64,000 nucleotides of DNA, taken from the NCBI RefSeq assembly GCF_024700885.2, contig NZ_CP117016.1. One strand, written 5' to 3'. The position numbers were made by a program, and so were the translations under genes. Source of the stretch: Escherichia coli. GTDB lineage: Bacteria; Pseudomonadota; Gammaproteobacteria; Enterobacterales; Enterobacteriaceae. Below the pieces are notes generated by a model. The model ran no database searches and was not told where the DNA came from. It worked only from the letters and a program-made list of their open reading frames with translations. Shown one piece after another: positions 41,945 through 42,336 of this stretch (within the stretch, counting starts at the first letter, position 1; each line of letters opens with the position of its first letter).

Positions 41945-42208
41945 ATGGTCGAAGGGAATACCCGAAGGCCAGATGTGGAAAGGCCCCGGAAAACATCTCT
42001 GTTTAACCGAGGCCCTAACCGCATTACCTTGACAAGTGAAAGGTTAGCGCCTCTCCGGAAAAGGAGCAAGTGCTATGTCGCAAAAATCGCTTACGGCCAT
42101 CACGTTCTGCGTGACGGCAATCCTCATCATCTGGATGCTGCACGGTTCGCTGTGCGAAATACGGATGAGCTTCTGGGGAGCGGAGTTTGCGGCGTTCTTA
42201 CAGTGTAA
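41945..42208 (+). CDS. mok-like overlapping reading frame of the hok-type locus
   Basis: ORF in another frame overlapping most of the hok-like gene, as in hok/mok/sok loci; start uncertain. Confidence 0.3.
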   Translation: MVEGNTRRPDVERPRKTSLFNRGPNRITLTSERLAPLRKRSKCYVAKIAYGHHVLRDGNPHHLDAARFAVRNTDELLGSGVCGVLTV

Positions 42209-42215
42209 GCAGTAA
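42075..42215 (+). CDS. Hok/Gef-family type I toxin (small membrane peptide)
   Basis: 46-aa peptide with N-terminal TM helix and SLCEIR motif; RBS aaggag; followed by stem-loop and terminator. Confidence 0.65.
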   Translation: MSQKSLTAITFCVTAILIIWMLHGSLCEIRMSFWGAEFAAFLQCKQ

Positions 42216-42304
42216 GGAAACCGCGACGGGGGAGCAATCCCCCGTCAATCGGTTGCCAGGGTAAGGTCGATAAGGCACCCTATCTCACAGACATGAACAA
42301 CAAA

Positions 42305-42336
42305 CCCGCAGCGTAAAAACTGCGGGTTTTCTTTTT
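42305..42336 (+). terminator. Rho-independent terminator downstream of hok-like gene
   Basis: cccgcag-loop-ctgcggg followed by ttttcttttt. Confidence 0.6.

Follow-up and report, generated by a model that had tools for sequence, protein, structure and literature searches.

The described systems with which we compare the present locus are hok/mok/sok (parB) of plasmid R1 and hokW-sokW of the Stx2 prophage Sp5/933W. In R1, the mok start codon lies at 116-118 and the hok start codon at 174-176, so mok is read in the -1 frame relative to hok, and toxicity is lost when the final stem-loop of the truncated mRNA is mutated (PMC9841398). The hokW-sokW system was characterized experimentally as a type I toxin-antitoxin (TA) system, and hokW of Sp5 aids lysis after induction (Takada et al. 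2021, PMC8621323). A 2026 survey of hok coding sequences (Escalera-Maurer et al., bioRxiv 10.1101/2025.08.07.668861) describes, in the preprint text, an enrichment of hok in prophages and in islets of 2-6 copies, and cites work in which the chromosomal hok loci of E. coli K-12 were mostly inactive. According to the same text, the survey was confined to coding sequences and explicitly left out Mok, Sok, and the mRNA ends.

Here we analyze a hok locus within a 64,000-nt stretch of an E. coli genome (contig NZ_CP117016.1; hereafter the window). The locus and its peptide are already known, being annotated in RefSeq, catalogued, and reported as toxic, and prophage hok/sok has been studied before; the RNA anatomy of the cassette is new detail, not a new system. 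Its value is a worked anatomy of a common cassette, comprising the transcript ends, both promoters, the position of Sok, and the switch elements, all of them predicted.

The locus shares with R1 hok/mok/sok the SLCEIR core, a long leader, a tac/fbi closure, and ucb- and dcb-like boxes. Both also have a GAGG box in the target hairpin, a 3′ stabilizer stem-loop followed by fbi and a terminator, and an opposite-strand sok promoter with a 17-nt spacer that overlaps the hok Shine-Dalgarno (SD) region; in the window, these RNA and promoter elements are predicted. The locus differs from R1 in having no conserved mok open reading frame (ORF), in carrying its own strong AAAGGAG SD, and in residing in a prophage and not on a plasmid; hokW-sokW is likewise prophage-borne. 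We consider it very likely that the locus is a hok/sok-type type I TA cassette and forms cargo of a P88-like (Xuanwuvirus, P2-type) prophage in the ihfA terminator, where it lies toward attR; it would operate by an R1-like mechanism. An original prediction, made from the DNA letters of the window, had proposed a type I Hok/Gef toxin locus in a prophage, and this proposal is borne out by family profile matches, the RefSeq annotation, the RNA architecture, and the published toxicity of an identical peptide.

Prophage setting and distribution

The ogr gene occupies 41624-41884 on the same strand as hok, and the hok locus follows directly downstream of it, before the attR core. Direct k-mer comparison placed the attL core at 8118-8142 and the attR core at 42479-42503, with a P2-type prophage between them. 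Because the prophage spans the interval from one core to the other, the earlier placement of the locus between ogr and attR is correct.

42479-42503 (no strand): attR core, AAAGAAAAAAGGCCG[C/G]AGAGCGGCC, a repeat of the attL core at 8118-8142 that overlaps the ihfA terminator (k-mer comparison)

We also considered that the prophage might be defective on account of a truncated gpD (262 aa in the PGAP annotation) and rejected this, because no stop interrupts the frame between 38902 and 40131.

The sequence at 41900-42340 is identical to that of E. coli strain E-1246. The cassette is very common: among 5,426 complete E. coli genomes, megablast recovers the 441-bp locus in 1,554 and blastn in 1,756, or roughly 30%, and conservation reaches 90-100% in more than 1,200 genomes. 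P88-like Xuanwuvirus (P2-type) phages carry it at 94-98% identity. Stx phages show ~80% identity over 41908-42280; their copy, which is distinct from hokW, encodes 46 aa and lies downstream of lom. The order gpD-ogr-hok-att recurs at the serS, raiA, and Salmonella ihfA sites, and further copies are present in lambdoid and Stx prophages and in islets of 2-3 copies. The cassette follows lom or J in some contexts, and in others it forms tandem islets or adjoins host genes.

Tandem islets of 2-3 hok copies adjoin host genes at L006 (715-1803) and, in Salmonella, at L015-L018. The L006 islet lies beside serS in E. coli N51, and the same att site in L005 holds a whole P2-like prophage ending in ogr-hok. 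This arrangement suggests that some hok islets are remnants of successive prophage integrations and not local duplications.

The Hok peptide

The 46-aa ORF proposed originally translates to exactly the peptide that had been quoted and matches Hok family profiles.

42075-42215 (+): hok coding sequence, 46 aa (PF01848, PHROG 251, RefSeq WP_000078916.1)

Alignment to the Hok/Gef family covers essentially the whole length of the family profiles, with matches to Pfam HOK_GEF (PF01848; E 4.8e-7, 29.7 bits, model positions 5-42 of 42) and to PHROG 251 (E 1.3e-22, positions 2-49 of 50), the latter being labeled 'MokW-like host killing' in phage databases. RefSeq labels this exact locus 'Hok/Gef family protein' (WP_000078916.1). 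Among database relatives bearing a name, 67 of 67 are called Hok/Gef, and most of the relatives in the cluster carry a precomputed PF01848 match; these proteins come from Escherichia, Shigella, Salmonella, and Klebsiella oxytoca. A PADLOC search returned no model matching the 46-aa peptide. The only NCBIfam matches were the HokA model (34 bits against a cut-off of 89) and the Hok-family model (21.6 against 73). HokA of E. coli K-12 (NF007290) is thus the best NCBIfam match and has the C-terminal pattern ...EFAAFL.CK in common with the peptide, but given a score of 34 bits against a cut-off of 89, the peptide is not a HokA equivalog.

The peptide has the form typical of the family, with a length close to 50 aa and a hydrophobic helix at the N-terminus. 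Its conserved residues are C12-V-T14, L26-C27-E28, and E37, and its SLCEIR motif aligns with R1 Hok. For comparison, the family-wide conserved positions listed in the preprint text are M1, C16, T18, L30, C31, E32, and E41 (bioRxiv 10.1101/2025.08.07.668861). R1 Hok has 52 aa and ends in AAFMAYESGK, whereas the window peptide has 46 aa and ends in AAFLQCKQ. HokW has 51 aa (MKQQKAM...VDYESEK) and corresponds to survey sequence 35_712, a match made through the ends of HokW as taken from primers; it falls in cluster 35 together with HokD, whereas the window peptide belongs to cluster 72, the clusters being defined at 60% identity. Taken together, the profile matches, annotation, and conserved residues strongly support the conclusion that the ORF encodes a Hok/Gef-family membrane peptide.

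The amino acid sequence of survey peptide 72_1621 (cluster 72) is identical to that of the window peptide, and its coding sequence in Table S2 is one synonymous base apart from the window hok (Escalera-Maurer et al., bioRxiv 10.1101/2025.08.07.668861). In the preprint text, cluster 72 is a high-abundance cluster, and 72_1621 was cloned (plasmid LRP137) for the toxicity assay (bioRxiv 10.1101/2025.08.07.668861). Overexpression was toxic for 42 of 45 constructs, and the three non-toxic ones named in the preprint text and table do not include 72_1621 (bioRxiv 10.1101/2025.08.07.668861). The survey text therefore implies that the identical peptide is toxic on overexpression, in line with the toxin function first proposed; the non-toxic exceptions in its text and table are three other sequences. 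Neither outcome that was named in advance as speaking against the prediction, a lack of Hok-family similarity or of toxicity on overexpression, has therefore been obtained.

Predicted hok mRNA

The elements that we predict for the hok transcript are the following.

41894-41922 (+): predicted hok promoter, -35 TTGCCG (41894-41899), 17-nt spacer, -10 TAGATT (41917-41922), from the sequence
41929-42336 (+): predicted full-length hok mRNA, 408 nt, starting at ~41929 (fold, Rfam, consensus structure)
41929-41942 (+): tac element at the 5′ end, GGGTGCCTTTCGGC, pairing with 42266-42280 (minimum free energy [MFE] fold and alifold)
41977-41987 (+): ucb-like box, GGAAAGGCCCC, pairing with the GAGGCC box in the full-length mRNA (MFE, alifold helix 5) and with tac in the truncated mRNA
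42220-42253 (+): 3′ stem-loop, consisting of the 9-bp stem at 42225-42246 and an ACCG/CGGT extension, predicted 3′ stabilizer of the processed mRNA
42266-42280 (+): fbi element, GTCGATAAGGCACCC, complementary to tac
42302-42336 (+): intrinsic terminator of the hok mRNA, stem 42302-42329 and T-run to 42336

A -10 element of the form TA[GAC]A[AT]T is present at positions -12 to -7 relative to the predicted transcription start in 45 of 46 distinct upstream sequences, which come from different genomic contexts, and the -35 element is usually TTGCNN. The predicted hok promoter has 8 of 12 consensus matches. A sigma-70 consensus scan with a threshold of 9/12 found no site at the locus. Both the hok promoter and the sok promoter described below are predicted from positional conservation only. 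The locus had originally been delimited as 41945-42336. Its right end holds, but the left edge has to be moved, as the predicted transcript starts at ~41929 and the promoter lies further upstream.

The 408-nt transcript has an MFE of -178.4 kcal/mol (z = -8.35 against shuffles). A consensus structure was computed with RNAalifold from 18 diverged copies (E. coli prophages, P88, one Stx phage, Salmonella, and K. oxytoca). In this structure, 96.5% of cells are paired and 22 pairs show compensatory change, compared to 14.6 ± 1.8 in shuffles (0/500 reach 22) and 0-7 in slid controls. The covariation is centered on the tac/fbi helix (4 pairs), the hairpin after the hok stop codon (5 pairs), and a helix between 42027-42034 and 42254-42261 (5 pairs). 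The tac/fbi helix occupies alifold columns 1-13/353-367, and columns 10-13/353-356 all covary (e.g., CG:9/UA:8, GC:10/CG:7). The fold of the full-length transcript closes tac on fbi, so these family elements, which the original prediction had named as a means of checking it, are found both in the window and, through the four covarying pairs, in the relatives. The modeled structures strongly support an mRNA with the 5′-3′ (tac/fbi) closure and 3′ stem-loop that are hallmarks of the family.

The perfect 9-bp hairpin claimed to follow the stop codon is present at 42225-42246 (GACGGGGGA/GCAA/TCCCCCGTC), and the larger stem-loop at 42220-42253 contains five covarying pairs (e.g., GC:10/CG:8, AU:13/GC:5). 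By analogy with the last stem-loop of the truncated R1 mRNA, which is required for toxicity (PMC9841398), we infer that this hairpin serves as the 3′ stabilizer of the processed mRNA. The intrinsic terminator was also correctly recognized, with a stem at 42302-42329 and a T-run to 42336. Four terminator-like sites were found in 41850-42550 against 0.9 expected from shuffles, and relatives have equivalent terminators 3′ of fbi with different sequences.

The segment 41929-42088 matches Rfam family RF01794 ('sok') on the hok sense strand with 49.2 bits (E 3.5e-9), below the gathering threshold of 59. Relatives score 33-50 bits, compared to 87 bits for an R1-type control locus (L019), which matches on the same strand relative to hok. 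As the match is in the hok sense in both the window and the control, RF01794 marks the leader and Sok-target region and not the Sok strand.

Ribosome binding site and predicted Sok-target hairpin

Upstream of hok, the predicted mRNA contains the ribosome binding site and a hairpin that would serve as the Sok target.

42009-42053 (+): predicted Sok-target hairpin, formed in the MFE of the truncated mRNA, with a hypervariable loop at ~42021-42040
5′ arm of the hairpin (+): GAGGCCCTAACC, with a GAGG resembling the R1 mok SD at 42009-42012
3′ arm of the hairpin (+): GGTTAGCGCCTC, dcb-like, carrying the anti-SD
42060-42066 (+): hok SD, AAAGGAG, 8 nt upstream of the ATG

For comparison, 80 distinct related loci were gathered with a conserved 22-nt DNA pattern. 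All 80 have GGAG before hok, and in the window the good ribosome binding site noted earlier is indeed AAAGGAG at the distance given above. The target segment (GAGG...AGGTTA) occurs in 39 sequence variants among the 80 loci, its loop being the most variable part of the locus, and the main differences between tandem hok copies lie in this loop. In an alignment of 37 variants, we found no compensatory pairs in the target hairpin, the outer stem being invariant or changed on one side. Of the 39 loop variants, 37 contain a YUNR motif; we gave this no weight, as about two thirds would be expected to have one by chance.

In the full-length fold, the target hairpin does not form, and 42027-42034 pairs instead with 42254-42261 through the five covarying pairs described above. 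When the mRNA is ended at 42256, the MFE structure adopts both the tac/ucb pairing (GGAAAGGCCCC) and the GAGGCCCTAACC/GGTTAGCGCCTC target hairpin, whereas mRNAs ending at 42262 or 42268 do not. The hok SD pairs with CUCY (42051-42054) in the full-length MFE of 64/64 loci folded. Its median probability of being unpaired over these 64 loci is 0.00 in the full-length mRNA, 0.06 in the truncated mRNA, and 0.00 in the Sok-masked mRNA. Because hardly any of the SD is free in any of the three states, these thermodynamic ensemble calculations do not reproduce the proposed activation step. We considered an anti-SD switch, in which GAGG captures CUCC upon truncation and Sok releases it. The changes go in the right direction, but SD accessibility stays near zero, and we do not claim such a switch.

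Candidate Sok antisense RNA

An antisense RNA had been expected at the locus without being located. We find a good candidate, consisting of a conserved minus-strand promoter and a predicted RNA of ~60 nt.

42041-42069 (-): predicted sok promoter, -35 TTGCTC (42069-42064), 17-nt spacer, -10 TAACCT (42046-42041), from positional conservation
~42034 to ~41975 (-): predicted Sok antisense RNA, ~60 nt, ends approximate, placed according to the promoter position

The minus-strand TTGCTC with a 17-nt spacer is present in 63 of the 80 loci, and the -10 element is TAACCT in 65 and TATCCT in 4; other copies carry TTGACT or TTTACT as the -35 element. With 6 of 12 consensus matches the promoter is weak, and it is its conserved position, not its strength, that supports it. 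In the sequence of the R1-type control, TTGCGC-17 nt-TATCCT can be read by eye; it lies in the corresponding leader segment, as judged from the RF01794 matches of the window and of L019. Whether in prophages, Stx phages, or islets, the hexamers of the sok and hok promoters are conserved and their spacing is fixed.

The predicted Sok would comprise a 5′ tail, a GC-rich stem-loop, and then UUUCC, and the segment 42036-41970 folds at -26.4 kcal/mol (z -3.51). The free 5′ tail is complementary to the hypervariable target loop. The variability of this tail and loop (39 versions in 80 loci, with tandem copies differing there) fits copy-specific recognition by Sok.

Leader reading frame and mok

A mok-like ORF overlapping hok out of frame had also been proposed. 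The window does contain such an ORF, and it is open in the frame of R1 mok, but it is not conserved among the related loci.

41894-42208 (+): -1-frame ORF overlapping hok, judged not to be a conserved gene

In 51 of the 80 related loci, no leader ORF starting with ATG, GTG, or TTG in any frame reaches the hok SD; these include functional phage P88 and Stx phages. In most relatives, a stop 13-58 nt before hok closes the -1 frame, which has no start codon. The ORF in the window is long only because a TGT-to-TGC change, synonymous in hok, removes a TGA common in relatives. From the comparison of reading frames, we conclude that the cluster of 46-aa Hok loci probably lacks a mok gene. Unlike R1, these loci have no conserved mok leader ORF, so hok probably relies on its own strong SD for translation.

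The main alternative is a fully canonical hok/mok/sok system, in which the -1-frame ORF of the window is a working mok that hok requires for its translation, as in R1. The starts proposed for such a mok are GTG at 41975, which has an upstream GAAGG, or TTG at 42029. The frame relation to hok is that of R1 (PMC9841398), the window frame is open over 41894-42208, and 29 of the 80 relatives have some leader ORF running into the hok SD, 13 of them from a GTG at -100. The predicted pairing of the hok SD in all states would also fit a need for unwinding by a leader ribosome. Against this, the leader-ORF starts in the relatives are scattered from -145 to -20, with none at SD spacing from the conserved GAGG; the majority of loci, including those of P88 and the Stx phages, have no leader ORF; and the length of the ORF in the window is due solely to the synonymous change in hok. 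We therefore regard a canonical system as unlikely.

In the R1-type control (L019, 340-560), on IncFII plasmid pMTY1886, Hok is identical to that of R1, and 19 codons upstream of hok an ATG follows GAGG in the hok frame. A TGA closes the -1 frame there, and PGAP annotates just a 33-codon internal CDS. The position of this ATG in the hok frame indicates that the mok frame varies even among R1-like plasmid loci, and for this reason we relied on published coordinates for the mok frame of R1 (PMC9841398).

The missing conserved mok raises a testable question, namely how hok is activated and repressed when there is no mok reading frame. Our tentative answer, in which we place somewhat less than even confidence, is that cluster 72 represents a mok-less branch of hok/sok. 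In this branch, GAGG would be retained as a structural or standby relic, hok would be translated from its own SD, Sok would act from a distance, and private Soks would let the copies of an islet coexist. Control by a distant Sok would operate through blocking of a standby site, through an anti-SD switch, or purely through RNase III decay. Standby-site blocking by an antisense RNA is the mechanism of tisB/istR-1.

Proposed mechanism and remaining alternatives

We return to the preferred reading of the locus as a type I TA cassette with an R1-like mechanism. By analogy with R1, the weak hok promoter would make a stable 408-nt mRNA that is locked shut, in which a CUCC box further upstream pairs with the hok SD, and 42254-42261 with the Sok-target loop. 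As the 3′ end is slowly trimmed to the base of the 42220-42253 hairpin, the mRNA would lose both fbi and the 42254-42261 partner. The 5′ end could then refold on the GGAAAGGCCCC box (tac/ucb), and the GAGG...CCUC target hairpin could form. An unstable Sok of ~60 nt, transcribed from the minus-strand promoter, would bind the loop of this hairpin and lead to decay by RNase III. Upon loss of the locus or a stop in transcription, Sok would be gone first, and Hok would kill through membrane damage. Sok would bind ~30-90 nt upstream, and its effect there might be exerted through decay triggered by the duplex, loss of the GAGG standby site, or release of the anti-SD. Candidate roles of the cassette are retention of the element or prophage, exclusion of other phages, and an aid to lysis as for hokW.

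The locus might instead be a silent or decaying relic that no longer expresses Hok, like the inactivated hok loci of K-12. Most chromosomal hok loci of K-12 are reportedly inactive, as cited in the preprint text (bioRxiv 10.1101/2025.08.07.668861), and the window copy has no mok and a hok SD predicted to be sequestered. However, the ORF is intact and its product is identical to 72_1621, which belongs to the tested and, by the survey text, toxic set. All RNA elements are intact and have been kept by compensatory changes; more than 1,200 genomes conserve the locus at 90-100%, and active phages carry it. Decay of the kind seen in one Salmonella copy (L010), in which the 5′ tac is lost, is absent from the window copy. 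A relic is thus very unlikely.

A small membrane protein for lysis or superinfection, expressed by late read-through from ogr and lacking antisense control, is an extremely improbable alternative: hok does lie directly 3′ of ogr on the same strand, and hokW of Sp5 does aid lysis (PMC8621323), but the conserved module runs from its own -10 to fbi independently of the upstream gene (Stx homology 41908-42280), the cassette is also found after lom, after J, in tandem islets, and beside host genes, and the minus-strand promoter hexamers are conserved.

Additional observations

In the Salmonella copy L010 (1340-1500), the 5′ tac region has been lost, with no GGGTGCC, while hok, fbi, and the terminator remain; this copy exemplifies decay or re-promotion.

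The same P2-like prophage carries, at 15704-16979 (+), a ParM-type plasmid segregation gene and a gene of the 'plasmid partitioning/stability family'. Such genes are unusual in an integrating phage, and their presence together with a hok/sok stability cassette is suggestive. Between the attL core and the phage integrase, at 8268-9067 (-), lie two unannotated 'hypothetical' genes of 145 and 120 aa, which constitute a second cargo position at the opposite end of the prophage.

At 42423-42579 (-), the window has a sub-threshold match to the enterobacterial small RNA STnc540 in Rfam (37.3 bits, gathering threshold 38). The match spans the 3′ end of ihfA and its terminator, which is the att core of the prophage. 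The Salmonella counterpart of STnc540 scores 171.6 bits, and there a prophage occupies the same site.
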